The notes beneath the pieces are model-generated. The model worked only from the letters and a program-made list of their open reading frames with translations. It ran no database searches and was not told the origin of the DNA. A DNA stretch of 62,669 nt, taken from positions 1 to 62,669 of the IMG/VR virus record IMGVR_UViG_3300023184_000123, one strand, 5' to 3'. Made by a program: the position numbers and the translations under genes. This document shows positions 33,379-48,443 of this stretch, in pieces. The number at the start of each line of letters is the position of its first letter. The first letter of the stretch is position 1. The DNA comes from a virus (Duplodnaviria; Caudoviricetes).

Positions 33379-33407
33379 ATTATACTGCCAAAAGGAGAAG
33401 TTGTCAA
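33379..33407 (-). promoter_or_regulatory. sigma70 promoter
   Basis: TTGACA-17-TATAAT. Confidence 0.8.
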
Positions 33408-34898: not shown

Positions 34899-34899
34899 G

Positions 34900-35127
34900 T
34901 TATGTTCTCTCTTTTTTAACGCGACCAATTCGGCTCGCTTTGTTCCAATCATAGGCAATGCCATCTGGGCACAGGCCATCCTTTACTGTGTCAACGCCAA
35001 ATCTTCCAACAATTTCAAATTCACCTCCTTTGATAGAAACAAATTTATCAATCAATTTTGCATGTTCCATTGCGGAGTTCAAATCATCAAACTCTACTGC
35101 TACATTATTAAATATTACTTTGTACAT
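34900..35127 (-). CDS. Hypothetical protein, probably leaderless mRNA
   Basis: ATG lies 7 nt after the -10 box. Confidence 0.65.
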   Translation of the reverse strand: MYKVIFNNVAVEFDDLNSAMEHAKLIDKFVSIKGGEFEIVGRFGVDTVKDGLCPDGIAYDWNKASRIGRVKKERT

Positions 35128-35133
35128 GTGAGT

Positions 35134-35162
35134 ATTATACAGTCAAAAAGAAACCCAGTCAA
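35134..35162 (-). promoter_or_regulatory. sigma70 promoter of the RNA ligase/PNK operon
   Basis: TTGACT-17-TATAAT. Confidence 0.8.
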
Positions 35163-35182
35163 TCTAAGCCAACTGGGTTCAG

Positions 35183-35200
35183 TGTTGTATTTTTACAACA
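35183..35200. promoter_or_regulatory. Palindromic operator-like site
   Basis: TGTTGTA-TTTT-TACAACA; near-copies at 49397 and 49502. Confidence 0.65.
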
Positions 35201-35201
35201 G

Positions 35202-36614: not shown

Positions 36615-36629
36615 TTTATTTTACCTTTA

Positions 36630-36685
36630 CAGAATGTATTTTATTTTCGATTATAGTGAAATTTAAAGTTGCTGTTAACATTCTA
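36630..36685 (-). ncRNA. ACAGCAA-motif small RNA copy 1
   Basis: AGAATGT-TAACAGCAA...TTTCA-CTATAAT-CGAAA...ACATTCT. Confidence 0.65.
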
Positions 36686-36694
36686 AAACTTTAA

Positions 36695-36852
36695 CAGGAT
36701 CGTTGTCTACTTTTTGTTTTTATCGAGGAGACTTGTCGAAACTCCTCTATCTAATCCTATACATGCTGACAACCTTCAAAGCCCTTTCAGGCTCCAGCTG
36801 TCAGCATAAGATTAGCGTTCCATTGTAATATGTAGTTGCTGTACCGATCCTA
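36695..36852 (-). ncRNA. ACAGCAA-motif RNA copy 2 (long, multi-hairpin)
   Basis: AGGATCG-GTACAGCAA...CGATCCT with internal stems ATGCTGACA/TGTCAGCAT and GAGGAG/CTCCTC. Confidence 0.65.
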
Positions 36853-36885
36853 AAACTTCTTAGCAAGTTTCCTTGCTATGCGACT

Positions 36886-36914
36886 ATTATAGTACAAACA
36901 ACATGTGTTGTCTA
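36886..36914 (-). promoter_or_regulatory. sigma70 promoter upstream of RNAs 1-2 and the DUF2828 gene
   Basis: TAGACA-17-TATAAT. Confidence 0.7.
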
Positions 36915-36929
36915 TACATTTTGGTGAAA

Positions 36930-36982
36930 CAGGATACATTTTTCTTCATTTGGATTGAAATAAAATTGCTGTTAGTATCCTA
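36930..36982 (-). ncRNA. ACAGCAA-motif small RNA copy 3
   Basis: AGGATAC-TAACAGCAA...TTTCA-ATCCAAA-TGAAG...GTATCCT. Confidence 0.65.
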
Positions 36983-37041
36983 ATAGGGGCCACTGGTTAG
37001 TGACACATCCACCATCTAGTTAGAATGAACTAGCACATGTT

Positions 37042-37119
37042 TGGAACAACGGGAGGGATTTGAACCCCCGGTTTTCAGGATTTGCAATCCCGTGCATTGG
37101 ACCTCTCTGCCACCGTTGC
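37042..37119 (-). tRNA. tRNA-Cys(GCA)
   Basis: Cloverleaf, loop TTGCAAA, U73, CCA. Confidence 0.9.
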
Positions 37120-37869
37120 ATTAAATTTGCTCATATCAGCACAAGTGTACTTTTGGTACGAGTCTTTCAAGTTGTTGGGCATGGGAATTGTTTCAACAGG
37201 TACACCAAAACTTTTTGCCACATCCATAAAACTCATTGTGCGCCCAGTTCCCAAGTTCCACAAGCCACTAGGTGTATTATACAAGAAATCCAAGTGTGTG
37301 TCAACCAGTTTAGACACATGCACAAAGTCTCTTAGATAGTGTTCACTGCCTTCAAAAACTTGTATGCGTCCTTGTGTTTCAGCTTGGCGTTTGAATTGCA
37401 TAAACGGACTGGCTTGGTTGCCTTTGTGTTCTTCACCTTCAGGACCATACACATTAAAATAACGGAAACCTTGTACTACACTGCCGCTGGGATGATCTCG
37501 CACATAGCGTTCGAACAAGTATTTGCTCCATGCATAAGGAGTACGTGGATCCACAGGAGCATCTTCTCTAAATGTACTGGTTAACCCGTAAACACTTGCT
37601 GTACTTGCGTATTGGAAGTTAACTCCGTACGTTTTACAAGCATCATACAGCTGGCGACTGAAATCAAAGTTCTGTCGCAACACTTTATCTATATCTCTTT
37701 CAGTTGTGCTGCTGATGGCCCCAATATGTATAACCCAATCTTGTTCCATTACGCTGGGAAAATTACCGTCGCCCCAATCGTATGTACTCACAGTGTGTCC
37801 AGCAGACTCCAGTGCTGTCAGCACACGACTACCAATAAAACCTTTATGGCCTGTTAACAGTATGTTCAT
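37075..37869 (-). CDS. hldD: ADP-L-glycero-D-manno-heptose 6-epimerase-like
   Basis: TGHKGFIG, GAISSTTE, YASTASVYG, Y.WSK, RYFNVYGP, RDFVHV, YQKYTCAD. Confidence 0.85.
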   Translation of the reverse strand: MNILLTGHKGFIGSRVLTALESAGHTVSTYDWGDGNFPSVMEQDWVIHIGAISSTTERDIDKVLRQNFDFSRQLYDACKTYGVNFQYASTASVYGLTSTFREDAPVDPRTPYAWSKYLFERYVRDHPSGSVVQGFRYFNVYGPEGEEHKGNQASPFMQFKRQAETQGRIQVFEGSEHYLRDFVHVSKLVDTHLDFLYNTPSGLWNLGTGRTMSFMDVAKSFGVPVETIPMPNNLKDSYQKYTCADMSKFNATVAERSNARDCKS

Positions 37870-38225
37870 TTTTGATTGTCGCCTTTGCCCACACGATAGT
37901 TGTCTTCCACACTGTCTGCTGTGCTGACTTCGATAACTGTGCCTTCTTCAACGCATATCAACTGATGCGGCTCCAACGGTTTGTTTCGCCAAGTGTCGCC
38001 GGGTTTGAGCACAGTAGTTGTTTGATCAGCATTTGCAGTTTCAATACTGGTCACAGTGAACAAACCGTCCAACACATACCAGGTTTCGTCTTTGACAGCA
38101 TGAAAGTGCATGCTGAACTTGGCGCCCGTGTTGAACTTCATAAGTTTGCCACAGTAGTGTTCGTTGGTGGCCCAGATCAATTCGTGGCCCCAGCCTTTTG
38201 GTACTAACCCTGATAATTGTGTCAT
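37866..38225 (-). CDS. Cupin (sugar isomerase-like) protein
   Basis: KGWG.E, SMHFH..KDETWY, PHQL, EVST. Confidence 0.8.
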   Translation of the reverse strand: MTQLSGLVPKGWGHELIWATNEHYCGKLMKFNTGAKFSMHFHAVKDETWYVLDGLFTVTSIETANADQTTTVLKPGDTWRNKPLEPHQLICVEEGTVIEVSTADSVEDNYRVGKGDNQK

Positions 38226-38983
38226 CCTATTTCCTCTAGTGTTGGAGCATAAACTCCCAAATGTTGCACAGTGACCGCACTCGCTGCATTGGCGAATGTA
38301 ATGGCTTTTTTGATATCTCCAGTGTCAAGATACTGGTAAGCTAATGCAGACAAAAAGGTATCACCTGCACCAGTCACATCCACCACTTCTACACTGGGCG
38401 CAGCAACATCTATATCATGATGAACAGCACTGGCGCCTCGACTGCCTCTAGTGACAATTAATCCGGTGCATTCACTTTTAATTCTGCTGTGTTCTAATTC
38501 GTTAATCTTTACCCAGGCACCCTGCATACGTGCTAGGTCTGTTTTCTTAGTGTCGATAAAGATAGGAATACTCAATGCAATCAGCTCTTCGATTAGTTCG
38601 TAGCTGACTGTGCCTTTGTTGTAGTCACTGATTACCACAGCATCGTACACATGGGGGATTGCAGTTTCAAATGTGATAGGCGTTGATTCAACATCCGAAT
38701 CAATACGAACAATCTGTTGTCGACTACGTTCGTCAAGGAGCCTAGTTTTGACACTGGTTTCACCATGCAAATAATTAACGTCACAGCCCAAGGCTTCTAA
38801 GTTGTTGGCCACATTACCAGCCATGCCAGCACGAGTTTCTGTGCGAGTAGGAACAAACACAGGAACAGGAGCTTCGGGGCTTAGTCTATCGATGGTACCA
38901 TACTGGTACACATCAGTACAGTTATCGCCTATTAGCAATATCTTGAATTGTGTTTGTTGTTGAGTATTCACCGACTCTGTCAT
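38222..38983 (-). CDS. Heptose-7-phosphate kinase-like (HldE/RfaE domain I, PfkB)
   Basis: RLSPEAPVPV, GMAGNVA.N, SDYNKG, DVTGAGDT. Confidence 0.9.
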   Translation of the reverse strand: MTESVNTQQQTQFKILLIGDNCTDVYQYGTIDRLSPEAPVPVFVPTRTETRAGMAGNVANNLEALGCDVNYLHGETSVKTRLLDERSRQQIVRIDSDVESTPITFETAIPHVYDAVVISDYNKGTVSYELIEELIALSIPIFIDTKKTDLARMQGAWVKINELEHSRIKSECTGLIVTRGSRGASAVHHDIDVAAPSVEVVDVTGAGDTFLSALAYQYLDTGDIKKAITFANAASAVTVQHLGVYAPTLEEIG

Positions 38984-39323
38984 AAAATATCACTTGATCA
39001 ACATGTTGTTGTGCCACTATACTTTTGCCCCGCCAGTCACTGCCCTTGACCATGATGTTGGGTTTGTACAGTTTAATTAAATCCACTAACTCTTCACGTG
39101 TGTTAAAGATCTCAACATGGTCTACACATTTTAAACTGTTCAGCATGAACTGTCTATCAGTTTGAGTGTTTATGGGACGAGTAGCACCTTTGAGTTCTTT
39201 CACACGAGCGTCGGAATCTATACAAACCAAAAGATAGTCACCTTGACTTTTTGCATAGTGCAACATTTCTAAATGTCCACGATGCAAGATATCAAATGTT
39301 CCGTTTACAATTACTTTGGTCAT
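38922..39323 (-). CDS. Heptose-1-phosphate adenylyltransferase-like (HldE domain II)
   Basis: NGTFDILHRGH, KG..RPIN, KGSDW, YSTT. Confidence 0.9.
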   Translation of the reverse strand: MTKVIVNGTFDILHRGHLEMLHYAKSQGDYLLVCIDSDARVKELKGATRPINTQTDRQFMLNSLKCVDHVEIFNTREELVDLIKLYKPNIMVKGSDWRGKSIVAQQHVDQVIFYDRVGEYSTTNTIQDIANRR

Positions 39324-39329
39324 AATATT

Positions 39330-39404
39330 TGGTACCTGGACACGGTTTCGAACCGCGGACCCTTTCCGTGTAAAGGAAACGCTCTACCCCTGAGCTATCC
39401 AGGC
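39330..39404 (-). tRNA. tRNA-Val(TAC)
   Basis: Cloverleaf, loop TTTACAC, CCA. Confidence 0.95.
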
Positions 39405-39411
39405 AATGTTT

Positions 39412-39693
39412 TTATCGGTGGTACTTGGCCTTGTGATCAATATTGCGATCTCCGGGTTCGTTAAATTTGATCTTCTTCATGTAGCCAGCATCAAGTTTTC
39501 CTTCTTGGAACTCTAACAATGCAGTAACAGCTGAATGCAAGTGTTCAAATTTTTCACTGTCTCGATTCTGTCGACGAATTTCACGTGCTCTAGCAGAAGC
39601 CATGATCACAAGATTGAACCTGTTGCCACCACTCTGTTCAACACACAAATCAGTATCGAGTTCTGGACTACGACTTTGAGTTTTTTTAATCAT
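39412..39693 (-). CDS. rpoZ: RNA polymerase omega subunit-like protein
   Basis: GNRFNLVIMASARAREI...VTALLEFQEG. Confidence 0.8.
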   Translation of the reverse strand: MIKKTQSRSPELDTDLCVEQSGGNRFNLVIMASARAREIRRQNRDSEKFEHLHSAVTALLEFQEGKLDAGYMKKIKFNEPGDRNIDHKAKYHR

Positions 39694-39724
39694 AATTTAC
39701 CTTAGTACCCTTTGTTAAAATGTT

Positions 39725-39753
39725 ATTATACACAGTGTTTGTAACAAAGTCAA
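39725..39753 (-). promoter_or_regulatory. sigma70 promoter
   Basis: TTGACT-17-TATAAT. Confidence 0.75.
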
Positions 39754-39777
39754 CTTCAAAAATAGTACAAACACAAA

Positions 39778-40854
39778 CTATCCAATAATTTTTAAAACTT
39801 CTAAAAACGTATCTTTATAGGATACATTTCGTTTTTCATCCAGCATTTCCATATTTTCAATAAGTTTTTGAAATTTGCCCGGAACTTCAGGATGAGATTT
39901 TAACAAACGAGTTATAATATGATCAGTTCCAAACTTGTCTTCAATATGCTTTCTCAATTGTAACGGAGTAGCATCTATGCCCCATGTACCAAAGCATGGA
40001 CTAACTTGCAATCCAGAAAACTCATTGCTTCTGCTAGGCCATGATCTTTTTGAATGCCACGTTTCTAATTCTTTAAAATAAAAGATATTCATGGGATTAG
40101 CTGTAAACTGTATGTAAAAGCCCAGCTTGTCTTTTAATATACTATCATAGTGTAGCATGTTATGCTCTACTTTCTTCCAACTCAGTGGCCAACGTATGTA
40201 ATCAAACTGCTCATTCATTCCATCTATGCTGAATGCAAGATCGACCTGTTTAAATGTTGACCATAATTCTATTAATTCAGAATCTGGCAAAATACTACCG
40301 TTTGTGTTATAGAACACTTCTACATTTGACGGGGTAGTTACACGTTTCAAAAAATCTACATTGTGTTCACTGAGTAATGGTTCTCCACCCACAAAATCCA
40401 AACGGGTAAGTTTATCAAAGTTAGTAAAAGATATTAACTTTTGATATTGAAGCGAATAATTTTTTAATTTAGCATTAGGGTTATTTTGTTTCTGCCAAAG
40501 ACTACTAGAATGCGGCCCACAGATTGTACATGCCGCATTACATGTTAAATCGATCTGTACCGCAATGTGGTACATATCACCGTCCACTGCATCTTCTGGT
40601 ATAGAAGTTTTGGCAACTTGTCTATGACTGACTCCGTATTGGTTTTGCTCGCGTCCAAGACACTCATGGCAATTTTTTTCAGTATCGGAAAGTACATTTT
40701 TTGTAAACTGTCGTCTAACTGAAGTTAGTTGTATTTTATGTTCTATAGGCGTGGTACTTGGAGCAATCCAACAGCATGGCTGATACACAATGTTGCCATC
40801 TTTTTCAAGGAAACGAAAAGAGTTACTTAGTTTTCTACAAAATTCATTGGCCAT
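39778..40854 (-). CDS. Radical SAM/twitch domain protein
   Basis: PCC, CHEC, CNAACTIC, GGEP. Confidence 0.9.
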   Translation of the reverse strand: MANEFCRKLSNSFRFLEKDGNIVYQPCCWIAPSTTPIEHKIQLTSVRRQFTKNVLSDTEKNCHECLGREQNQYGVSHRQVAKTSIPEDAVDGDMYHIAVQIDLTCNAACTICGPHSSSLWQKQNNPNAKLKNYSLQYQKLISFTNFDKLTRLDFVGGEPLLSEHNVDFLKRVTTPSNVEVFYNTNGSILPDSELIELWSTFKQVDLAFSIDGMNEQFDYIRWPLSWKKVEHNMLHYDSILKDKLGFYIQFTANPMNIFYFKELETWHSKRSWPSRSNEFSGLQVSPCFGTWGIDATPLQLRKHIEDKFGTDHIITRLLKSHPEVPGKFQKLIENMEMLDEKRNVSYKDTFLEVLKIIG

Positions 40855-40871
40855 TTTTTGTTTCCTTGTTT

Positions 40872-40947
40872 TGGTTGCGGGACTTGGATTCGAACCACCG
40901 ACCTCTAGGTTATGAGCCTAGCCAGATACCACTTCTAACACTCTGCG
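40872..40947 (-). tRNA. tRNA-Met(CAT), initiator-like C1:A72
   Basis: Loop CTCATAA; imperfect T stem. Confidence 0.8.
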
Positions 40948-40953
40948 TCAACT

Positions 40954-41027
40954 TGGTGGAGGATAACAGAATCGAACTGTTACGAAGACCTTGCAAAGGT
41001 CCCAGGCTCCCATTACATCAATCCCCC
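40954..41027 (-). tRNA. tRNA-Ala(TGC)
   Basis: G3:U70, loop TTTGCAA. Confidence 0.9.
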
Positions 41028-41032
41028 AAACT

Positions 41033-41109
41033 TGGTCGGAGTACAAGGATTCGAACCTTGGACCCCCTGGTCCCAAACCAGGTGCGCTACCAGACTGCGC
41101 TACACTCCG
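41033..41109 (-). tRNA. tRNA-Pro(TGG)
   Basis: Cloverleaf, loop TTTGGGA. Confidence 0.95.
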
Positions 41110-41115
41110 AAAAAC

Positions 41116-41189
41116 TGGAGCGGGGTGCGAGAATCGAACTCGCGCTATCAGCTTGGAAGGCTGAAATCCTACCATTAAATGAACCCCGC
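41116..41189 (-). tRNA. tRNA-Gly(TCC)
   Basis: Loop CTTCCAA. Confidence 0.9.
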
Positions 41190-41192
41190 ACA

Positions 41193-41282
41193 CTTTATTA
41201 AAATACATTCATGGCTTTTGCTACGCTGGTGCCCTGTCCTTACTACCCATCTTATAGATAAGTTAAATGTATTTTAATAAAG
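41193..41282 (-). ncRNA. Spacer hairpin RNA with 17-bp closing stem
   Basis: CTTTATTAAAATACATT/AATGTATTTTAATAAAG. Confidence 0.55.
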
Positions 41283-41283
41283 T

Positions 41284-41487
41284 GTCCGGCCACTCACACC
41301 ACATGAGCCCCGGACTGAGCAGTTACTCTGTCCATAACATTTGTTCTTCTGGAAAGGTGCTAAACCTCACCCAATGCGTTCCCGCCACTCTTCAGCAGAG
41401 TACGGATGGTCATGGCATTGAATACCCAGCACTCTCTATGGTGACTGCCCCACCCACTTTCTTAACGGAAAAAGTGTAATCCGGGTT
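41284..41487 (-). ncRNA. Candidate large structured RNA (~200 nt)
   Basis: Nested stems CCCGGA/TCCGGG, GGGCAGT/ACTGCTC, CCATAG/TTATGG, GTGCTGG/TTAGCAC. Confidence 0.55.
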
Positions 41488-41490
41488 TCC

Positions 41491-41564
41491 TGGTGCCCCG
41501 TGACAGAATCGAACTGCCAATACCTGATTACAAAACAGGTGTTATACCACTTAACTAACAGGGC
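41491..41564 (-). tRNA. tRNA-Thr(TGT)
   Basis: Loop TTTGTAA. Confidence 0.9.
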
Positions 41565-41569
41565 CTATT

Positions 41570-42613
41570 TTAATTTATCTGTTTGATGTGTATGATATTA
41601 TTTTTCACAATAGAAATTGTGTCTCCTAAATCATAACCTTTAGTCATGTCATCAAACTGTTCTTTTTTAATGTTTATGGACTGACAACACACCACTGTGT
41701 TACATGGATAACCAATCTCTTCATACCGGTGTGCTTTGAGTCTTTGAATAAACACTCGTCTTGTTTCTGAATCGTGTATTTCCATCAGTGTGGATTCCAT
41801 CACATTGCCCAGCACAATGTCATTGTTGTCATCGTAGCAACAGGGATACAAGTCACCGTTGGGTGCAATAAAAACTTCTTTTTCCACACGCATTAACAAT
41901 GGGCAATCCAGTGTGGTTTGATCCACATTGATTCTGGCTCTGCCTGAAGTGATCAAACCACGTTCAGCCCATAAACCACTTTTACTGTGCTTGATAAAGA
42001 TGTCATCCGGCACAAATTTTCTAAGACTTTTCACAGTTTCTTCATATGTACTGAACGGAATCTTTCGCTTGTACTGATCCGGTTTGGTTTGCATAAACGC
42101 ATTCACACTTACAGTGTATTCAAACGCTGTCATCACATTAATAGAAAAATCAAATTTTGGATCATACACCGCACGTAGTTCTAAAAACTTTTTTACATTT
42201 TTAATAACGCCAGCATAGCTGATACCCTTGACAGCTTTGTAACTCTTGGCATCATGTCCATCAATATTGACCTGTATGCTACTGAGCAGCTTTTCTTCCA
42301 GCAAGGGTTTTGCTATCTTTGCTGACATTAGGCCAAAGTTGCTCAACAAGTTAAGTGCTGTGTTGGGTAACTTGGCTCGGATGTAGCGCACAATTTCCAA
42401 AAATTCAGGATGATACAATGCCTCGCCATTTTCGCTGAGATGTATCATTTTGATTGGATTTGGAAACGCAGGATCAGCTGCTTCGTCGATGATCTTCTTT
42501 ACCACATCAAACGGCATGTCAAAATTGTGTTTGGTGCCACGCGATGTGGGACACCAAATACAAGTGGCGTTACAGCGATTGGACAATGCTAGATTGATGC
42601 AATCAATTGACAT
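41570..42613 (-). CDS. Radical SAM/SPASM protein
   Basis: CNATCIWC, ENGEAL, NGDLYPCC. Confidence 0.9.
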   Translation of the reverse strand: MSIDCINLALSNRCNATCIWCPTSRGTKHNFDMPFDVVKKIIDEAADPAFPNPIKMIHLSENGEALYHPEFLEIVRYIRAKLPNTALNLLSNFGLMSAKIAKPLLEEKLLSSIQVNIDGHDAKSYKAVKGISYAGVIKNVKKFLELRAVYDPKFDFSINVMTAFEYTVSVNAFMQTKPDQYKRKIPFSTYEETVKSLRKFVPDDIFIKHSKSGLWAERGLITSGRARINVDQTTLDCPLLMRVEKEVFIAPNGDLYPCCYDDNNDIVLGNVMESTLMEIHDSETRRVFIQRLKAHRYEEIGYPCNTVVCCQSINIKKEQFDDMTKGYDLGDTISIVKNNIIHIKQIN

Positions 42614-42615
42614 GA

Positions 42616-42831
42616 TTATTCCGCGCTGACAGCACTGGTGTTGGTGACTTGATAGCCACTGGCGCCGCGTGGTGCATTCTTGTCACGACTAGGAGTTTTG
42701 ATAACAACCTCACTGCATAACTGTGCGTCGATCATGGCACGTTTCCACGCATTACGCTGTACTGGATCCACAATAGATGCTAGCAGGGTCTTTGTGGTTT
42801 TTTTCAATTTGAATGTCTTAGTGGGTTTCAT
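42616..42831 (-). CDS. Hypothetical basic protein
   Basis: 71-aa ORF with AAGG RBS. Confidence 0.65.
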   Translation of the reverse strand: MKPTKTFKLKKTTKTLLASIVDPVQRNAWKRAMIDAQLCSEVVIKTPSRDKNAPRGASGYQVTNTSAVSAE

Positions 42832-42851
42832 GTTTTACCTTTTATTAAATT

Positions 42852-42941
42852 TGGCGGAACGAAAGAGACTCGAACTCTTAAAGCGGCTTTCACCACTCGA
42901 CGGATTAGCAATCCGCTCCAATACCATTATGGGACCGTTCC
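42852..42941 (-). tRNA. tRNA-Ser(GCT)
   Basis: Loop TTGCTAA, long variable arm. Confidence 0.9.
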
Positions 42942-42946
42942 AAATC

Positions 42947-43087
42947 TTATCTTGTTATTGCACGTATTAATTTATGCCAGTAATATCTCACACCTCGCCA
43001 AGTTGGCGCAGTATCCCAATTCCAGGCAAATCCCACTTCGTTGGGAATATTGCGGTATGCTTTATCGATAACTTCTTTGGGTGTCAT
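42947..43087 (-). CDS. Small hypothetical protein
   Basis: MTPKEVIDKAY... after AAGGA RBS. Confidence 0.55.
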   Translation of the reverse strand: MTPKEVIDKAYRNIPNEVGFAWNWDTAPTWRGVRYYWHKLIRAITR

Positions 43088-43105
43088 ACTGTTTTCCTTT
43101 ACGCA

Positions 43106-43192
43106 TGGTGCGACTGGCCGGAATCGAACCGGCACGCCTGTTAGAGCGAGAGATTTTAAGTCTCTTGTGTCTACCTATTTCACCACAGTCGC
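43106..43192 (-). tRNA. tRNA-Leu(TAA)
   Basis: Loop CTTAAAA, long variable arm. Confidence 0.95.
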
Positions 43193-43212
43193 ATTATTTG
43201 TTACTTGTGCTT

Positions 43213-43241
43213 ATTATACTGCAAGTGTCACACAATGTCAA
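43213..43241 (-). promoter_or_regulatory. sigma70 promoter inside the tRNA array
   Basis: TTGACA-17-TATAAT. Confidence 0.8.
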
Positions 43242-43250
43242 CACTTATTT

Positions 43251-43324
43251 TGGCGTACCCACTAGGACTCGAACCTAGACTGACGGTTTTGGAGACCGCG
43301 ATGCTGCCATTACACTATGGATAC
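43251..43324 (-). tRNA. tRNA-Trp(CCA)
   Basis: Loop CTCCAAA. Confidence 0.9.
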
Positions 43325-43329
43325 ATTGT

Positions 43330-43419
43330 TGGCGGAAGTAGTAGGATTCGAACCCACGGACCCTTTCGAGTCTTCAGTTTTCAAGACTGCTGCCTTAAGC
43401 CATGCTCAGCCATACTTCC
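43330..43419 (-). tRNA. tRNA-Ser(TGA)
   Basis: Loop CTTGAAA, long variable arm. Confidence 0.9.
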
Positions 43420-43425
43420 TTTATT

Positions 43426-43511
43426 TGGTGGATGCGGTTGGAGTCGAACCAACAGTGCCGTGAAGCGGGAGATTTACAGTCTCCTGGGGTTACCAGTTTT
43501 CCTACACATCC
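43426..43511 (-). tRNA. tRNA-Tyr(GTA)
   Basis: Loop CTGTAAA, long variable arm. Confidence 0.9.
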
Positions 43512-43517
43512 ATATTT

Positions 43518-43593
43518 TGGCTCCCCGAGTACGGATCGAACGTACGACATCTTCGTTAACAGCGAAGCGCAACTACCTCTGTGCTATCGGGGA
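43518..43593 (-). tRNA. tRNA-Asn(GTT)
   Basis: Loop CTGTTAA. Confidence 0.9.
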
Positions 43594-43599
43594 ATTGAT

Positions 43600-43678
43600 T
43601 GGTTGCAGAGGCAGGATTCGCACCTGCGATCTCCAGCTTATGAGACTGGCGAGGACGACTGGACTCCTCTACTCTGCG
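43600..43678 (-). tRNA. tRNA-Met(CAT), initiator-like C1:A72
   Basis: Loop CTCATAA; T loop TGCGAAT. Confidence 0.8.
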
Positions 43679-43683
43679 ATAAT

Positions 43684-43760
43684 TGGTGCCCTGGGAGAGA
43701 CTCGAACTCTCAGCTTACGGCTTCTAAGACCGCTGTGTTTACCAATTTCACCACCGGGGC
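43684..43760 (-). tRNA. tRNA-Leu(TAG), short variable arm
   Basis: Loop CTTAGAA; about 5-nt variable region. Confidence 0.9.
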
Positions 43761-43764
43761 ATTA

Positions 43765-43848
43765 CATATAAAAACACACTCAAGTCCGCGGCACGGAAGG
43801 CACTATACCCGCAATGGTCTATGACCAGTCCTAATGTGTTTTTATATG
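43765..43848 (-). ncRNA. Spacer hairpin RNA with 14-bp closing stem
   Basis: CATATAAAAACACA/TGTGTTTTTATATG. Confidence 0.55.
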
Positions 43849-43922
43849 GCGTCCCTACGGGGATTCGAACCCCGGTACTCACCGTGAAAGGGTGATGTCC
43901 TAGGCCTCTAGACGATAGGGAC
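43847..43922 (-). tRNA. tRNA-Glu(TTC)
   Basis: Loop CTTTCAC. Confidence 0.95.
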
Positions 43923-43977
43923 AAACTAAATTTTATATTTTTAAAGAACGTTGCTAGTGTTTGCTAGACAAGTGTTT

Positions 43978-44006
43978 ATTATACAATCTCTACTGAGCAA
44001 TGTCAA
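43978..44006 (-). promoter_or_regulatory. sigma70 promoter inside the tRNA array
   Basis: TTGACA-17-TATAAT. Confidence 0.8.
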
Positions 44007-44026
44007 CAACTTTTTTAAAAAATATT

Positions 44027-44101
44027 TGGCCGGCCTTGAGAGGATCGAACTCCCACCGCTGGTTTCGAAGACCAGAATGATATCCATTTCACCAAAGGCC
44101 G
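44027..44101 (-). tRNA. tRNA-Arg(TCG)
   Basis: Loop CTTCGAA. Confidence 0.9.
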
Positions 44102-44108
44102 ATTTGAG

Positions 44109-44183
44109 TGGTCCGGCGTAACGGAATCGAACCGCTATTAGGGGAGTAGAAATCCCCTGTATTATCCATTATACGAACGCCAG
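44109..44183 (-). tRNA. tRNA-Arg(TCT)
   Basis: GGGGA-TTTCTAC-TCCCC. Confidence 0.9.
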
Positions 44184-44192
44184 TGAACATGT

Positions 44193-44221
44193 ATTATACT
44201 TTATTTACCGACTGATGTCAA
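44193..44221 (-). promoter_or_regulatory. sigma70 promoter
   Basis: TTGACA-17-TATAAT. Confidence 0.8.
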
Positions 44222-45674
44222 TGGTGTTGATTCCTAACTTTTTATTTTTGTAAGATTCCACTCTTGTTTTCATAATTCTGGCGTCGTTTTCTTCCTCTGC
44301 ACACCGATTGAGTCTCGCCGTTAAATCTCCATCAATGCCATTTGATGAAATATTCCAGCAGTTCAATGTAAATCCGTTTTCTTTTTCATACAATTCTTTA
44401 TACATTTTTTTTTGTAGTTCGATTGCTTGATTTATATTCATAAATTTATTTTGCCAAGGCAGTACAGTGTTACTGACGCCGCCGCGCTGGCCGCTGGGAT
44501 TCCAGTTAATATCACTATCCTCCATCACAGTGTAACCATACTTTTTGTAATCTGCACTTAACTTAGACAGTGTATCAAACTCCCCGACTGGTATTTCTAA
44601 TGCAAATGGAATAAATGATTGTCCCCTCCAGTTTTCTTTCAGCCAGGAGATTGTGTTTTCCGTTTGTTGTACAGTATCCTCTGGCAATCCAATGATAAAA
44701 CTCATAGTTCCTCGATAACGTCCTTTGCTGGTAAAGTAGTTTTTAGCATCTATCAACCCTGCTTTGATCTTTTCAGGATCCATTCCTTTACCAACAACTT
44801 TAACTGACTCTTTATTAAAACTTTCTATACCATAAAGGTGGCCAAGAAACCCTAATCTAGACAATTCTTCTTTATCTTCTTTTCTAGATATCATCAAGTC
44901 TGCTCTAACAAATCCAGTAAACCAAGGTTTGAACGACATTAGCTGTGTTGCGTCGGCAAACTTGGTTATTTTTTCTGTTCGATCATTAAACGTTTCGTCT
45001 GCCACAAGATAGTTAGTAACACCAAATCTATCGTAAGCATCCATCAGTTGTGTGTAATAATCCGCGGCATCTCTACTGTAATCGCCCTTTACACCCAGTA
45101 CAGGAAAATTACAAAACGCACATTTAAATTTACAACCTCTGGCAAACTCAATGCCCAACCACTCATCAGGACGAATGAAATCTCGGTCTTGATACTTCAC
45201 CATCAAACTTTTCATTGGAAATGAAGGATACATTTCATTTCCGTTGATTAATTTTTTATTGAATATAGAAAACTTTGGAAGTTCGCCGTTGCTAAAAAGC
45301 CATTTCAGCAAAACTAACAAAGCATTCTCACCAAACCCTTGAATGTAATAATCTATACACTTCGATTTGAATTGCGGAGCAACTCCTGATCCTGATATTA
45401 TCACAACATCAGGGTATTCAACTTTTAACCATGCTGTAAAGTCTTCTAAGATTTCACTCCATAGTGAAAACATGTGGCTGAATCCTATAAACTTTGTGTT
45501 TTTATCAATTCTTGATCTAGCTAGATCTTTAAACTCTTCCGGAGTCCAATACATAGCATAATCAATAATTTCAACGTCCCAGTTGTGTTCTCTAAGACAG
45601 TGTGCTATTCTGTATGCACCCACGGTCCTTCCTAGTTTTTCAGTAGATACATTGAATATCAAACATTTATACAT
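44205..45674 (-). CDS. B12-binding-type (class B-like) radical SAM protein
   Basis: GAYRIAH.LR, EFARGCKFKCAFC, DETFND, GIESF, FIIGLP; start MYKCLIF. Confidence 0.85.
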   Translation of the reverse strand: MYKCLIFNVSTEKLGRTVGAYRIAHCLREHNWDVEIIDYAMYWTPEEFKDLARSRIDKNTKFIGFSHMFSLWSEILEDFTAWLKVEYPDVVIISGSGVAPQFKSKCIDYYIQGFGENALLVLLKWLFSNGELPKFSIFNKKLINGNEMYPSFPMKSLMVKYQDRDFIRPDEWLGIEFARGCKFKCAFCNFPVLGVKGDYSRDAADYYTQLMDAYDRFGVTNYLVADETFNDRTEKITKFADATQLMSFKPWFTGFVRADLMISRKEDKEELSRLGFLGHLYGIESFNKESVKVVGKGMDPEKIKAGLIDAKNYFTSKGRYRGTMSFIIGLPEDTVQQTENTISWLKENWRGQSFIPFALEIPVGEFDTLSKLSADYKKYGYTVMEDSDINWNPSGQRGGVSNTVLPWQNKFMNINQAIELQKKMYKELYEKENGFTLNCWNISSNGIDGDLTARLNRCAEEENDARIMKTRVESYKNKKLGINTIDISR

Positions 45675-45690
45675 CCTATATTTACATAAA

Positions 45691-45768
45691 TGGTACCCCA
45701 CCCCTGATTCGAACAGGGAGAACTTCTCCTTTTGAGAGAGATGACTTTACCAATTTGTCCAGTGGGGC
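45691..45768 (-). tRNA. tRNA-Leu(CAA), short variable arm
   Basis: Loop CTCAAAA. Confidence 0.85.
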
Positions 45769-45946
45769 ATAAATATTTTTGTGAAAACACACGATCACAT
45801 AACATCTCAAGGATTGTATTTTCATCTTTGTTTGTACCAAGGTGTGTGTTGCGTCATGGTACAAGATGTGTACGACAACACCTACTTTGAAATGCAGTAC
45901 TTCACTGATGTCAACAAAGCATTGCGCTATATCAACAATCTCTAAA

Positions 45947-46038
45947 TGGTACCAGCGGAGGGAATCAAACCCTCTCAAGAACGCTAATCTGGCGCTAAAA
46001 GTCTTATAAGGACTCTCTGACTGTCAAGTCTCGCTGGC
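45947..46038 (-). tRNA. Atypical tRNA-Ile(TAT)
   Basis: Loop CTTATAA; 4-nt D loop; long variable arm. Confidence 0.75.
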
Positions 46039-46045
46039 ATTGTTG

Positions 46046-46120
46046 TGGTCTCCTTGGCGGGAATCGAACCCACATTTACTCTTTAGGAGAGAGTGGTTCT
46101 ATCCATTGAACTACAAGGAG
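46046..46120 (-). tRNA. tRNA-Arg(CCT)
   Basis: Loop CTCCTAA. Confidence 0.9.
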
Positions 46121-46125
46121 ATGTT

Positions 46126-46201
46126 TGGAGCGGGTGATCGGGATCGAACCGACGACAATCACGTTGGCAACGTGGCGCTCTACCAACTGAGCTACACCCG
46201 C
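46126..46201 (-). tRNA. tRNA-Gly(GCC)
   Basis: Loop TTGCCAA. Confidence 0.95.
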
Positions 46202-46211
46202 ATAAAAGATA

Positions 46212-46456
46212 TTAGTAGAAAACACTAGAGGTTTTTGGTTCACGAGAGTGCAACTTGCCTACCCGGGCTTTACAGGCCCGCCTCATTTGTCTAGCAAACA
46301 TGGAGCACCTTTACTGCCCAATCCAGAATCTTTGACTGTAAATCATTATTCTTTCAACAGCTCGCATGCAGTTTATAACTACCTTTTCTCCGCAACGTTC
46401 CGTGTTACAAATACTTGTCTTTTCAGAATGCTTGTATGCTTTGTGTTTTCTACTAA
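46212..46456 (-). ncRNA. Candidate structured RNA with 14-bp closing stem
   Basis: TTAGTAGAAAACAC/GTGTTTTCTACTAA enclosing about 217 nt. Confidence 0.5.
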
Positions 46457-46521
46457 CAACTCTATTTAATAAAATGTCAAGTTGTTTACCGCACAACCTG
46501 ACAAAGCGGGGGTCTGTTGAA

Positions 46522-46734
46522 TTTGTAAGTAGTGCTACCACATTATAAGCACCATTCACCCGAATTAACAAGCTCGAGCGGGATTCGGTAAGTCACTTAG
46601 GATACTAGTCCAGTTTGTCTCCGTTTCAGACACCACCCTTGCGAGTGGTTGGGAGTTGAACCCATCACCTTCTACTGCTTCGGTCCTTCGAAGAAACCTA
46701 GACAGAATGACATTCTCTTGCTGACACTTACAAA
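46522..46734 (-). ncRNA. Candidate large structured RNA
   Basis: TTTGTAAGT/ACTTACAAA closing stem, T-loop-like GGGTTCAACTCCC, several hairpins. Confidence 0.55.
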
Positions 46735-46737
46735 ACT

Positions 46738-46827
46738 TGGAGGAAGAAGGAGGAATTGAACCCCGGCCAGCTAATGCCAACCGCCTGTTTTCCAAACAGG
46801 TGTAGTAACCATACTACCGCATCTTCC
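46738..46827 (-). tRNA. tRNA-Ser(GGA)
   Basis: Loop TTGGAAA, long variable arm. Confidence 0.85.
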
Positions 46828-46832
46828 ATGAT

Positions 46833-46908
46833 TGGTACACCCTGTTGGAATCGAACCAACTTCCACGGTTCTTCAAACCGCCGCTATGACCACATCAGCT
46901 AAAGGTGC
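46833..46908 (-). tRNA. tRNA-Phe(GAA)
   Basis: Loop TTGAAGA. Confidence 0.9.
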
Positions 46909-46915
46909 ATATACT

Positions 46916-46989
46916 TGGTAGTTCCTGAAAGAATTGAACTTTCATCTGCGCGATGTCAACGCACTGTTCTTCCATTAAACTAAGGAACT
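46916..46989 (-). tRNA. tRNA-Val(GAC)
   Basis: Loop TTGACAT. Confidence 0.85.
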
Positions 46990-47003
46990 AAAATCTACTT
47001 AGG

Positions 47004-47074
47004 GGTGACCACTGGGAATTGAACCCAGATAAGCGGAATCACAATCCACGACTTTACCATTAAGTTATGGCCAC
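47004..47074 (-). tRNA. tRNA-His(GTG), no encoded CCA
   Basis: Loop TTGTGAT; C73; flanked by a long inverted repeat. Confidence 0.85.
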
Positions 47075-47092
47075 ACCTAAGTAGATTAAAAT

Positions 47093-47167
47093 TGGTACCG
47101 CCAAAAGGAATCAAACCTCTATTCCCACGTTCGTAGCGTAGTGTATTATTCATTATACTATGGCGAT
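47093..47167 (-). tRNA. tRNA-Arg(ACG)
   Basis: Loop CTACGAA. Confidence 0.85.
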
Positions 47168-47172
47168 ATATT

Positions 47173-47250
47173 TGGCAGAGGAAGTGGGATTCGAACCCAC
47201 GATGACGATTTCAAAGACCGTTGCCTTAGGCCGGGCTAGGCGATTCCCCA
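47173..47250 (-). tRNA. tRNA-Gln(TTG)
   Basis: Loop CTTTGAA. Confidence 0.9.
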
Positions 47251-47256
47251 ACAATT

Positions 47257-47332
47257 TGGTAGTAACGGTGGGACTCGAACCCACGATAAACACCGTATGA
47301 AGGTGGTGCATTAGCCACTATGCTACGTTACC
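47257..47332 (-). tRNA. tRNA-Met/Ile2(CAT)
   Basis: Loop TTCATAC. Confidence 0.85.
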
Positions 47333-47461
47333 ATAGAAAAACACACTCGGCTCTCCTTACAACCTTGTTCCTGTCAATTCAGGATGAAACTGGATGAACC
47401 CAGAGGCTCCCCTTGGTTGTTTGTATCTGTCAATTCAGATTGAAAGTGTGTTTATCTATGG
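47331..47461 (-). ncRNA. Spacer hairpin RNA with two identical AATTGA-loop hairpins
   Basis: CCATAGA.AAACACACT closing stem; ATCTG-AATTGA-CAGAT and TCCTG-AATTGA-CAGGA. Confidence 0.6.
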
Positions 47462-47534
47462 TAGGACCGCTGGGACTCGAACCCAGAATTGGCAGATTAA
47501 AAGTCTGCTGTGATAACCATTTCACCACGATCCC
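47459..47534 (-). tRNA. tRNA-Lys(TTT)
   Basis: Loop CTTTTAA. Confidence 0.9.
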
Positions 47535-47538
47535 ATAT

Positions 47539-47614
47539 TGGTCCCTAGCGACAGATTCGAACTGTCACCTCATCGGTTAAGAGCCGAGTACGCTACCGTT
47601 AACGCCAGCTAGGG
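47539..47614 (-). tRNA. tRNA-Lys(CTT)
   Basis: Loop CTCTTAA. Confidence 0.85.
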
Positions 47615-47930
47615 TTAGTTGTATTAAATTGATTTAATGTGCCAACCCTAGACCAATACGGGATCTAGAGCGACACTAACGTTTAGCACGTTTCATGCTA
47701 TTCTCCTTTGTTGATATTACGCTTTTGTGCTTGGCGTTCTGATTTCCAGAACACTCGTTTCCAATCTTTCAAATGCTTCCACCATTGTGGACTGCGTGTT
47801 AGAATACCTTGTTGTTTATGTGCCATAAAGTGACCCCCTGTACTGACCACAAAGATCAGTCCATGCTAGAATCTCTTTTTCATTTAGCTTCATTGATTCA
47901 ATCCAAGACATAGATGTCTCCTTTATAAAA

Positions 47931-47987
47931 CAGGATGCTTATTTTTCAATTAAAAGTTGAATTTTTGAATTTGCTGTTCGCATCCTA
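47931..47987 (-). ncRNA. ACAGCAA-motif small RNA copy 4 (Lys-type anticodon loop)
   Basis: AGGATGC-GAACAGCAA...TTCAA-CTTTTAA-TTGAA...GCATCCT. Confidence 0.7.
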
Positions 47988-47991
47988 AAAT

Positions 47992-48065
47992 TGGTGCTCT
48001 AACGTAGAATCAAACTACGATTCCTGTCATACCAAGACAGTGTTCTATCATTAAACTATAAGAGC
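47992..48065 (-). tRNA. tRNA-Thr(GGT)
   Basis: Loop TTGGTAT. Confidence 0.85.
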
Positions 48066-48071
48066 AAAAAT

Positions 48072-48147
48072 TGGTCTCTCTGCTAGGATTCGAACCTAGA
48101 CCACACGGCCCCAAACCGTGTACGCAACCTGATAACGCTTCAAAGAG
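48072..48147 (-). tRNA. tRNA-Pro(TGG)
   Basis: CACGG-TTTGGGG-CCGTG. Confidence 0.85.
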
Positions 48148-48154
48148 ATAAAAT

Positions 48155-48229
48155 TGGTGGAGGCCGAGGGAATCGAACCCTTCTAGACAAGATGCTTGCA
48201 AGGCAACTCCGTAGCCCACTACTGCCCCC
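48155..48229 (-). tRNA. tRNA-Ala(TGC), reduced D arm
   Basis: G3:U70, loop CTTGCAA, D arm GTAG-TGGG-CTAC. Confidence 0.8.
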
Positions 48230-48301
48230 AATTAAAAAACACATTCACCCGAATGGACATTGTCACCTCCGCCTGCTGTCGGAAATGTGTTTGTTGATTG
48301 G
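48228..48301 (-). ncRNA. Spacer hairpin RNA
   Basis: CCAATCAACAAACACATT/AATGTGTTTTTTAATTGG imperfect closing stem. Confidence 0.5.
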
Positions 48302-48373
48302 TACTGTCGACGGGTATCGATCCCGCTTCTCCACCTTGAAAGGGTAGCGTCCTAGCCACTAGACGACAACAGT
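48299..48373 (-). tRNA. tRNA-Glu(TTC)
   Basis: Loop CTTTCAA. Confidence 0.85.
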
Positions 48374-48381
48374 GTAAAAAA

Positions 48382-48443
48382 CAGGATAGCATTTTTGGCT
48401 TTTTTTCAAGAAAAGGTTTTTAATGTTTGCTGTTGCTATCCTA
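48382..48443 (-). ncRNA. ACAGCAA-motif small RNA copy 5 (Ser-type anticodon loop)
   Basis: AGGATAGC-AACAGCAA...CTTTT-CTTGAAA-AAAAG...GCTATCCT. Confidence 0.7.

Follow-up and report, generated by a model that had tools for sequence, protein, structure and literature searches.

Occurrence of five related elements in a giant phage genome

The locus raises the question of why five short, similar stretches of DNA in a giant lake phage record lie partly ahead of a DUF2828 gene and partly between tRNA genes, and what they encode. We analysed the whole 62,669-nt record (the window), in which an earlier note had listed five copies sharing one pattern. Scanning it with TAGRATNNNNACAGCAA recovered these copies, with 0 forward and 5 reverse matches compared with 0/0 for the backwards control, so that all of the elements lie on the minus strand (Table 1). 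They have a common architecture, in which an 8-bp covarying closing stem is followed by ACAGCAA, a variable insert and a 3' CUG(U); the stems were as previously given, and their two variable pairs change between copies while complementarity is kept. In a scan of the 62.7 kb, our covariance model recovered A, C, D and E at 61-73.5 bits and B partially at 20.6 bits, and nothing further convincing was found. The positions described earlier were also recovered, as A, B and C lie 16-370 nt upstream of the DUF2828 gene, which itself sits within a 36-tRNA array, and D and E lie 2-8 nt from tRNAs, with D starting about 4 nt past tRNA-Thr(GGU) and E flanked by tRNA-Ile(GAU) and tRNA-Glu(UUC).

Table 1. 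Features of the window; each copy is taken to start at the U of the terminal U.G pair and to end at the G of CUG, and bit scores are from our own covariance model.
Feature	Positions	Strand	Description
RNA-repair gene block	32746..34979	-	
Metallophosphoesterase	32746-33465	-	Pfam; downstream of DUF2828 gene
AAA_33 kinase	33404-33880	-	Pfam; downstream of DUF2828 gene
RNA ligase	33870-34979	-	Pfam; downstream of DUF2828 gene
DUF2828/DUF7788 protein	35202..36614	-	470 aa; Pfam PF11443 + PF25043; predicted Ro60/TROVE-like; candidate partner
Copy A	36685..36630	-	56 nt; stem UAGAAUGU/ACAUUCUG, ACAGCAA, weak hairpin; 68.4 bits
Promoter-like TTAACA-17-TATAAT	36678..36650	-	11/12 consensus matches; inside copy A
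Copy B	36852..36695	-	158 nt; handle UAGGAUCG ... CGAUCCUG enclosing a 130-nt strongly structured insert, an unclassified module
Promoter-like TAGACA-17-TATAAT	36886..36914	-	11/12 matches, consensus match only; between copies C and B
Copy C	36982..36930	-	53 nt; handle + 5-bp hairpin; z = -2.8; 61.3 bits
Copy D	47987..47931	-	57 nt; handle + hairpin UUCAA-CUUUUAA-UUGAA; 73.5 bits
Copy E	48443..48382	-	62 nt; 10-bp handle + hairpin CUUUU-CUUGAAA-AAAAG; 63.8 bits

Copy B, with a fold energy of -53.5 kcal/mol (z = -5.7), had no match in an Rfam search. In many loci, homologues of roughly 160-170 nt lie upstream of DUF2828. The stretch 36692/3..36854/8 is covered by RNA-library contigs from three studies, a weak hint, as contigs prove neither transcription nor ends.

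A large and covarying RNA family

The stem-ACAGCAA RNAs constitute a very large and apparently undescribed family. A pattern restricted to the 5' half gave 132 unique matches in viral contigs, 101 of which had an exact complementary 3' strand within 300 nt, with CUG(U) next in nearly all. The variable closing-stem pairs occurred as four pair types each, and the inner hairpin showed double changes at 5/5 pairs. The covariation score was 0.485, compared with 0.144 in shuffles, and was reached by 0/500 shuffles, which bears out the earlier view that this is a real covarying RNA family. In an independent set of sequences, CAGCAA was present in 35-37 of 37 and was preceded by A in 25/37, with U or A one position further out; the 5' end was (A/U)AG, the 3' G occurred in 35/37, and a U followed it in 31/37. 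Phages of Firmicutes, Actinobacteria, Proteobacteria and Cyanobacteria all retain the handle, and there are arrays of 3-5 different units per locus. Whereas the earlier note had named a match to a characterised Rfam family of unrelated function as evidence against its reading, Rfam held no family matching these RNAs, the only consistent hit being the sub-threshold Class I RNA model. The size of the family, the tRNA-like long forms with their two circularly permuted topologies and the resemblance to Dictyostelium Class I RNAs did not figure in that note.

Linkage to a DUF2828 protein with a predicted Ro60 fold

The AF2 model of the DUF2828 protein (pLDDT 89.7, pTM 0.88) was compared with the PDB using Foldseek, and the top 13 matches were all Ro60/TROVE proteins aligned over the full length, with E values of 2.8e-8 to 6.3e-5 and TM scores of 0.36-0.63 (at least 0.44 except for D. 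radiodurans Rsr, 2nvo). The protein is thus predicted to consist of a helical-repeat ring and a C-terminal vWA domain with a MIDAS, i.e. to have the Ro60/TROVE fold, and D276, S278 and S280 of its vWA metal site do not vary. A Pfam search at E <= 0.01 returned DUF2828 and DUF7788 only, with the TROVE model silent, and a sequence profile matched Ro60 among PDB sequences at just E = 0.35-0.54, over the vWA metal site; because of this, the link to Ro60 rests on the predicted fold. The designation of this gene as TROVE-like therefore holds at the level of predicted structure and fails at that of Pfam and sequence profiles. DUF2828 occurs in 704 of 50,697 deposited phage genomes and in thousands of metagenomic clusters, as well as in plants, fungi and amoebae.

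The proposed co-occurrence with DUF2828 proved to be specific in both position and strand. The gene was present within 3 kb in 26/58 true-element loci but in 0/22 chance-match loci. At 80 viral DUF2828 loci, a strict descriptor gave 110 matches on the strand of the gene, none on the opposite strand and none in reversed controls, and 78 of the 110 sit 0-700 nt upstream of the DUF2828 start. At 79 bacterial and MAG loci with proteins just 30-67% identical, all 39 covariance-model matches (E <= 0.1), distributed over 30 loci, were co-oriented with the gene. Neither descriptor nor model matched at 28/80 viral and 49/79 bacterial loci. Among isolated phages, the family adjoins DUF2828 in Synechococcus phage BUCT-ZZ01, Shigella phage Sf14 and Mycobacterium phage Faith1, and three members lie in tandem beside it in Listeria phage A511.

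This arrangement could also be produced by a purely cis-acting leader or operator of the DUF2828 mRNA, serving translational autoregulation or mRNA stabilisation, instead of by free small RNAs. Every match is co-oriented with the gene, 20 strict matches ('type A' elements, equivalent to copy A) end 0-50 nt ahead of its start, and copy A itself stops 15 nt before the AUG, immediately before an AAAGG ribosome-binding site. However, copies D and E are 11 kb distant, many members occupy tRNA gaps far from the gene (18 strict matches at 3-5 kb, as well as the Sf14 case), and the arrays of 3-5 units and the tRNA-embedded forms described below fit trans-acting RNAs better. We thus regard a cis-acting role as a sufficient explanation to be unlikely.

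Anticodon-like loops and tRNA-like inserts

The loop identities pointed out earlier are present in the short copies. Copy D has exactly the loop of the phage tRNA-Lys(UUU), CUUUUAA, and copy E exactly that of the phage tRNA-Ser(UGA), CUUGAAA, while the loop of copy C (AUCCAAA) agrees with the CUCCAAA of tRNA-Trp at 6/7 positions; the hairpin of copy A (loop CUAUAAU) contains one stem mismatch and is overlapped by the promoter-like sequence. The inner hairpins of the window copies have weak A-U stems, and RNAfold gives only that of copy C cleanly. Across the family, a seven-nucleotide loop with Y32, U33 and R37 capping a stem of 4 bp or more was found in 39/88 short forms, whereas 300 shuffles averaged 2.0 and never exceeded 6, although these statistics overstate the significance because related sequences are not independent. 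The expected enrichment is thus a strong excess that includes many identities, with the Lys(UUU) loop as the commonest mimic. The claim that most elements display anticodon loops applies to about half of the short forms family-wide and not to the other half.

Long relatives possess a tRNA-like domain composed of a T arm, a capped acceptor-like stem and a D arm, which is not seen in the five window copies; A, C, D and E have one hairpin each instead, and B has a module that is unclassified. A 123-nt relative (L141:4325-4447) matched the full Rfam YrlA model (RF02553) at 40.1 bits (E = 2.7e-7), the best score among relatives and below the gathering score of 69, and the YrlA model gave no match to the window copies at E <= 10. 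In line with the earlier reading, long family members score as divergent YrlA Y RNAs. In further relatives, which are otherwise normal tRNAs, the handle forms an inserted hairpin that separates the D arm from the anticodon arm, a circular permutation of the same design.

Inserts derived from tRNA parts, the abutment of D and E on tRNAs and the many tRNAs in almost all true-element loci would also be expected if the elements were stable by-products or processing punctuation of tRNA operons (tRNA remnants or RNase entry sites) with no dedicated protein partner, in which case the linkage to DUF2828 would merely reflect that both live in tRNA regions. This scenario is quite unlikely, since CAGCAA and the terminal AG/CUG-U have been kept across phages of four bacterial groups and a covarying helix would not persist in remnants. 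In addition, the handle is found immediately upstream of DUF2828 at loci with few tRNAs in the vicinity, as in Faith1, which has no annotated tRNA in the 7.3-kb stretch, and in A511, with the nearest match about 280 nt upstream. Finally, although copy A contains a promoter-like sequence and the element ends form an imperfect inverted repeat, it is extremely improbable that these are DNA-level elements (promoters within inverted repeats, miniature transposable elements or recombination sites), since the -10 element is unconserved in aligned type A relatives, the stems covary with G-U-tolerant changes and keep no single sequence, strand specificity is strict (110 vs 0; 39 vs 0), and insert lengths range from 41 to 299 nt.

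A proposed tRNA-mimicking ribonucleoprotein

The explanation that we favour, and consider probable, is that the five elements are small non-coding RNA genes whose products are Y-RNA-like partners of the Ro60-like DUF2828 protein and display tRNA or anticodon mimics. The constant handle is a terminal helix of 6-10 bp that starts with (U/A)AG and ends with CUG-U, its 5' strand continuing as single-stranded (U/A)ACAGCAA and its 3' strand being A-rich, and the adjacent ring-plus-vWA protein would bind this handle. It bears an exchangeable cargo, namely an anticodon-stem-loop look-alike in the short forms and a whole tRNA-like body or another structured module in the long forms. The RNAs are probably excised from tRNA-operon transcripts by tRNA-processing enzymes, and DUF2828 may also repress translation of its own mRNA through the copy that immediately precedes its start codon. 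The particle may present its mimics to anticodon-specific factors, either as a bait or decoy for host anticodon nucleases or as an adaptor bringing tRNA-handling enzymes to the ring; the decoy, bait or repair-guide roles raised earlier are suggested by the gene context. From the neighbouring RNA ligase, kinase and phosphatase genes and the 36-tRNA array, we infer a role in phage-host conflict over tRNA integrity; this repair context is not general, as an RNA ligase is adjacent in only 1/58 true-element loci.

If this model is correct, DUF2828 gains a function and an RNA partner, and the Ro60–Y RNA principle also covers a second protein family, which has an RNA handle of its own, a portable module that is placed on anticodon arms, on tRNA bodies in two circularly permuted topologies, and on other folds. 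The anticodon-loop minis would also offer a concrete idea of how large phages cope with anticodon-targeting host defences.

Comparison with known systems

In the tRNA repair of phage T4, Pnkp and Rnl1 counter the anticodon nuclease PrrC. The phage examined here similarly has a tRNA array next to RNA ligase, kinase and phosphatase functions; we know of no Ro-like protein or handle RNA in T4. T4 tRNA repair is also cited in PMC7824862.

The closest parallel to the arrangement of genes is that of YrlA and Ro60, in which a gene for a Ro60-fold protein is likewise preceded at short distance by a tandem of small RNAs in the same orientation (RF02553; PMC4201824; PMC12135203). Both kinds of RNA attach a tRNA-mimicking module (T arm, capped acceptor stem, D arm) to a terminal helix, and both systems are tied to RNA repair genes, Ro60 and Y RNA being described as part of an RNA-repair operon in Salmonella and some jumbo phages (PMC7790460; PMC7824862). 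However, the protein here belongs to Pfam DUF2828/DUF7788 and not TROVE, an invariant single-stranded CAGCAA and a (U/A)AG...CUG-U terminus are peculiar to the handle, many members are 50-65-nt minis bearing just an anticodon-arm look-alike, and the handle is also placed inside otherwise normal tRNAs. Thermus phage phiLo encodes Ro60 with Yrl1/2 (PMC12135203), and the phages in Table S2 of Chen et al. 2014 (PMC4201824), which are Bacillus phage G, CcrColossus and cluster C mycobacteriophages, do not overlap with those examined here.

A second likeness is to the Class I RNAs of dictyostelid social amoebae, which are described in PMC7919456 as 42-65 nt RNAs with a covarying terminal stem, a 5' (A)AG and a 3' CUGU, encoded in Dictyostelia by genes with a DUSE promoter about 60 nt upstream. 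Shared features (Kjellin et al. 2021, PMC7919456) are a length of about 55-65 nt, a 5' (A)AG and a 3' CUGU whose C pairs with the 5' G, and a short covarying terminal stem with, directly after it, a conserved motif that terminates in UACAGCAA; in both, the middle is variable and the 3' strand is rich in A. The short window copies agree in stem, ends and length (UAG...CUGU, 53-62 nt). Beside the 5' stem strand, the 11-nt Class I motif, CCUUACAGCAA in the wording of the Rfam consensus, retains CAGCAA here, while its 'CCU' part is variable. The Rfam model RF01414 is the only non-tRNA family that repeatedly matched short forms; its 6/6 matches fell exactly on family members and covered the full model at 24.1 (copy C, E = 0.042), 18.3 (copy A), 17.9, 28.1, 23.6 and 23.1 bits, all below the gathering score of 41.5. 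In contrast to Class I RNAs, the gap from stem to motif is one nucleotide shorter here, the 'CC' of the motif is often missing, and the hosts are phages and bacteria, the record being a phage contig with bacterial-type context.

The sole published direct binder of Class I RNA named in PMC7919456 is the RRM protein Rnp1A. We found that the dictyostelid Tieghemostelium lacteum encodes DUF2828. Three other proteins were reportedly pulled down with Class I RNA (Avesson 2011), and these RNAs are reported to be confined to Dictyostelia and, to our knowledge, lack a known mechanism. We tentatively raise the possibility, which we consider somewhat doubtful, that stem-ACAGCAA RNAs and Class I RNAs are one family whose handle is the docking site for DUF2828. 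Class I RNAs would then take the place of Y RNAs in an amoebal DUF2828 particle, perhaps of phage or bacterial origin, and one would expect plants, fungi and other amoebae that encode DUF2828 to have similar, so far overlooked partner RNAs for it. The comparison also supplies a candidate partner protein, which makes the old question of the role and binders of Class I RNAs testable.

The five elements and their genomic surroundings

The window, 62.7 kb long, is part of the genome of an uncultured virus and has an estimated completeness of 16%. On the minus strand there are 36 tRNA genes and one oddity in addition to a two-piece tmRNA, and all five of the small RNA elements flagged in the earlier note (copies A to E) lie on the same strand. 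The elements are real: the pattern TAGRATNNNNACAGCAA matched the window five times on the minus strand, compared with no match on the plus strand and none with a backwards control. As RNA, each copy starts with UAG(G/A)AU-NN and ends with NN-AU(C/U)CUG, giving a terminal helix of 8 bp, or 10 bp in copy E, that includes a terminal U.G pair. Between the 5' helix strand and the A-rich 3' strand are two unpaired bases, then ACAGCAA and a variable insert. We refer to the constant, covarying terminal helix and the single-stranded ACAGCAA as the handle, and to the insert as its cargo. Copies A, C, D and E are short forms of 53-62 nt, with weak inner stems; copy B is longer. The consensus folding of ten RNAs of type B (the ~160-170-nt form) recovered the handle only, with zero supported inner pairs.

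Copies A, B and C are located 16-370 nt upstream of the DUF2828/DUF7788 gene, downstream of which are RNA ligase, P-loop kinase and metallophosphoesterase genes, while copies D and E are a few nucleotides away from their flanking tRNAs. Two promoter-like sites were found near the elements, one of them inside copy A with a -10 element that is not conserved in relatives. A near-identity DNA search of the locus against deposited phages returned no match. Contigs from metatranscriptomes (four runs, three studies) span both the DUF2828 gene and the RNAs, and some start or stop within a few nucleotides of the predicted ends of copy B; these give only a weak hint of a copy B transcript and its ends, because they are contigs only, strain variants loosen the ends and DNA carry-over is possible. 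Other features of the window are listed in the table, including three radical-SAM genes amid the tRNA array, whose products may be tRNA-modifying enzymes.

Coordinates of the elements and of other features in the window and in related loci
Feature	Location	Strand	Remarks
Copy A	36685..36630	-	
Copy B	36852..36695	-	158 nt; insert folding far above shuffled sequence, z = -5.7
Copy C	36982..36930	-	
Copy D	47987..47931	-	
Copy E	48443..48382	-	
DUF2828/DUF7788 gene	35202..36614	-	470 aa
ARAGORN 'tRNA-???'	15650-15750	-	101 nt; four-base anticodon tggg; no Rfam tRNA-model match at the gathering threshold
Weak covariance-model match	16900-16929		16.9 bits, E = 0.23
Sugar-nucleotide block	37075-39323	-	epimerase, cupin, PfkB kinase, cytidylyltransferase; between DUF2828 locus and tRNA array
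Radical-SAM genes (three)	39778-45701	-	one with SPASM, one with B12-binding domain
Two-piece (permuted) tmRNA	61697-62216	-	tag peptide AAANEAELEMAA; matches two models, permuted tmRNA and betaproteobacterial tmRNA
~230-nt handle RNA	L141:4688-4919		conserved in relatives L011, L042, L052, L055; GGAUGACUACAGCAAUUU...GAUCAUCCUG
ROOL-like match, Listeria phage A511 (NC_009811.2)	L225:1507-2058		RF03087, full model, near threshold: 87.5 bits vs gathering 99.1
freshwater-1 RNA, MAG contig labelled Micavibrio sp.	L241:1007-1068		RF02979, 82.7 bits, above threshold; without ACAGCAA motif

A covarying RNA family

To define the family, viral contigs were scanned with the 5' half alone, TTAGGATNNNNACAGCAA, which gave 132 distinct matches. 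In 101 of them, AGGAT and the two variable bases had their exact complement no more than 300 nt downstream, where the chance expectation for a complementary 7-mer within 280 nt is below 2%, and CUG(U) followed the 3' strand in nearly all of these paired matches. Insert lengths clustered near 55-65, 115, 165 and 230 nt. When 42 short forms were aligned, both variable stem pairs occurred as four pair types each. The inner hairpin, which had played no part in choosing these sequences, was 78% paired, with double changes at all five pairs, and the covariation score was 0.485 versus 0.144 for shuffled alignments, a level reached by none of 500 shuffles. The covariance model built from this alignment found exactly the four short window copies (61-73.5 bits), the match elsewhere in the window being weak. 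In an independent set of 37 sequences, CAGCAA was kept in 35-37; the other invariant parts were a 5' (A/U)AG and a 3' CUG followed by U, and the helix covaried freely.

In close relatives of the window, a ~230-nt handle RNA is present between the type B unit and the type A unit, the latter ending 0-50 nt before the DUF2828 start. The window is without this unit, and a strain variant in RNA-library contigs has it beside copy B.

Cargos resembling anticodon arms and other tRNA parts

The earlier note had read the loops of the short copies as anticodon loops, and the comparison bears this out: the loop of copy D is identical to that of the phage tRNA-Lys(UUU), the loop of copy E is identical to that of the phage tRNA-Ser(UGA), and copy C is Trp-like, with 6 of its 7 loop positions as in tRNA-Trp. 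The same tendency was counted in 88 distinct short forms against 300 shuffles. A 7-nt loop closed by 4 bp or more was observed in 65 of the 88 (shuffled mean 24.7, maximum 36), such a loop with U in second and a purine in sixth position in 46 (mean 4.5, maximum 10), and one with a pyrimidine in first position as well in 39 (mean 2.0, maximum 6), although the short forms are related sequences and these shuffle statistics overstate their independence. The short forms display 19 different loops, most commonly CUUUUAA (9), CUUGUAA (4), CUUGAAA (4), CUGCUAA (3), CUGUAAA (3) and CUGCAAA (3).

Larger cargos also resemble tRNA parts. A 123-nt relative aligned to the entire Rfam YrlA model with only 40.1 bits (E = 2.7e-7), where the gathering score is 69; its modules follow the YrlA order, with the T arm first, then the capped acceptor-like stem and the D arm. 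In other relatives, a tRNA of ordinary appearance accommodates the handle, as a closed hairpin with ACAGCAA, between its D and anticodon arms; this is a circular permutation of the same design, with conserved CUUG...AAG nucleotides closing the loop. Scanning for this closed handle carries a noticeable family-wide background (46 matches on the gene's strand, 9 on the opposite strand and 16 in two reversed controls). In the window, the scan returned only short hairpins inside coding regions, which we took as chance matches.

Linkage to the DUF2828 gene

Eighty pattern loci with 3-kb flanks were divided into 58 with a true element and 22 with a chance match. DUF2828 was present in 26 of the 58 compared with none of the 22, and many tRNAs accompanied almost all of the true elements, while 19 of the 22 chance loci had none. 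In the reverse test, 80 viral loci were picked solely for encoding a relative of the DUF2828 protein (59-92% identity). The strict descriptor detected 110 elements, every one of them on the same strand as the gene, and none in reversed-sequence controls; a looser descriptor was rejected for its 66 control matches. At least one element was present in 52 of these 80 loci, and 78 of the 110 elements were 0-700 nt upstream of the DUF2828 start codon, often in arrays of three to five different units. In 79 bacterial or MAG contigs with proteins 30-67% identical, all 39 model matches (E <= 0.1), distributed over 30 loci, were co-oriented with the DUF2828 gene. One MAG contig also has a freshwater-1 RNA between its handle-RNA array and the DUF2828 gene.

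The protein is encoded by 704 of 50,697 deposited phage genomes, under labels that vary from hypothetical to 'RNA-binding protein' and 'Ro-like RNA binding protein'. Clear elements were found beside the gene in four of the six isolates examined, namely Synechococcus phage BUCT-ZZ01, Listeria phage A511 (three in tandem), Shigella phage Sf14 and mycobacteriophage Faith1; matches in Sinorhizobium phiM12 and Vibrio nt-1 were only marginal. In A511, the three handle RNAs and the DUF2828 gene are preceded, ~650 nt upstream, by a ROOL-like match.

A predicted Ro60 fold

A confident AlphaFold2 model of the window DUF2828 protein built on a 42-sequence alignment (pLDDT 89.7, pTM 0.88) replaced an unusable single-sequence model (pLDDT 42.9). 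All of the best 13 Foldseek matches in the PDB were Ro60/TROVE proteins, including Xenopus and human Ro60, Deinococcus Rsr and Thermus phage phiLo Ro60, with E values of 2.8e-8 to 6.3e-5 and full-length TM-scores of 0.36-0.63 (at least 0.44 in all except D. radiodurans Rsr, 2nvo). The residues of the vWA metal site are invariant. The Pfam TROVE model gave no match to the window protein, and a sequence profile reached Ro60 only at an E value of about 0.35. As modelled, the DUF2828 protein has the Ro60 fold, a relationship barely visible to sequence methods alone. A protein atlas search returned DUF2828 clusters from viruses and nothing else.

Resemblance to Dictyostelium Class I RNAs

No family in Rfam 15 reached threshold on any of the five copies. 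The sole recurring sub-threshold match for the short forms was the Dictyostelium Class I RNA model; in ~53 kb searched on both strands, all six of its matches fell exactly on family members, over the full model, with 17.9-28.1 bits. Class I RNAs, reported as unique to Dictyostelia, are described in PMC7919456 as ~60 nt long, starting with (A)AG and finishing with CUGU, whose C pairs with the 5' G, and having a short stem in which compensatory changes are frequent, with an 11-nt motif after it. Apart from the promoter and the first bases of the motif, the phage family has each of these features. DUF2828 is also found in plants, fungi and amoebae, and a 504-aa protein of the dictyostelid Tieghemostelium lacteum (KYR00564.1), encoded on a 1.22-Mb contig, shares 32% identity with the window protein (E = 1e-69). 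D. discoideum was absent among the 22 matches of the protein search, which used a shared-word pre-filter, so this is no evidence of absence. A link between phage handle RNAs and an orphan eukaryotic RNA class is unexpected and testable.

Comparison with Ro60-Y RNA systems

The earlier note had proposed a protein-bound scaffold presenting interchangeable anticodon loops as decoys or baits for anticodon nucleases, or as guides for repair, an interpretation that our results partly support. A single genome displays a variety of anticodon identities, which points to clients that are specific for anticodons. For host anticodon nucleases the RNAs might be a bait or decoy; about equally likely, they might be adaptors for tRNA-handling enzymes. 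Judging from their positions, the RNAs could be released by tRNA-processing enzymes, and the unit abutting the DUF2828 start codon could mediate autoregulation. The full-text literature, covering few subscription journals, yielded no description of the RNA family or of its pairing with DUF2828, and the handle appears to be previously undescribed.

In known systems (PMC4201824, PMC12135203), tandem Y RNA genes lie upstream of Ro60, and the Y RNAs join a helix for protein binding to a tRNA-like module. Salmonella Y RNAs are placed within an RNA-repair operon (PMC7790460), and a survey of jumbo phages describes TROVE proteins, with a tRNA-like partner, as platforms for repair (PMC7824862). Because the arrangement of DUF2828 and the handle RNAs copies that of known Ro60-Y RNA systems, we read the five elements as probable Y-RNA-like partners of a Ro60-like DUF2828 protein. 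What differs within this kind is the handle, the miniature anticodon-arm cargos and the two permuted topologies.
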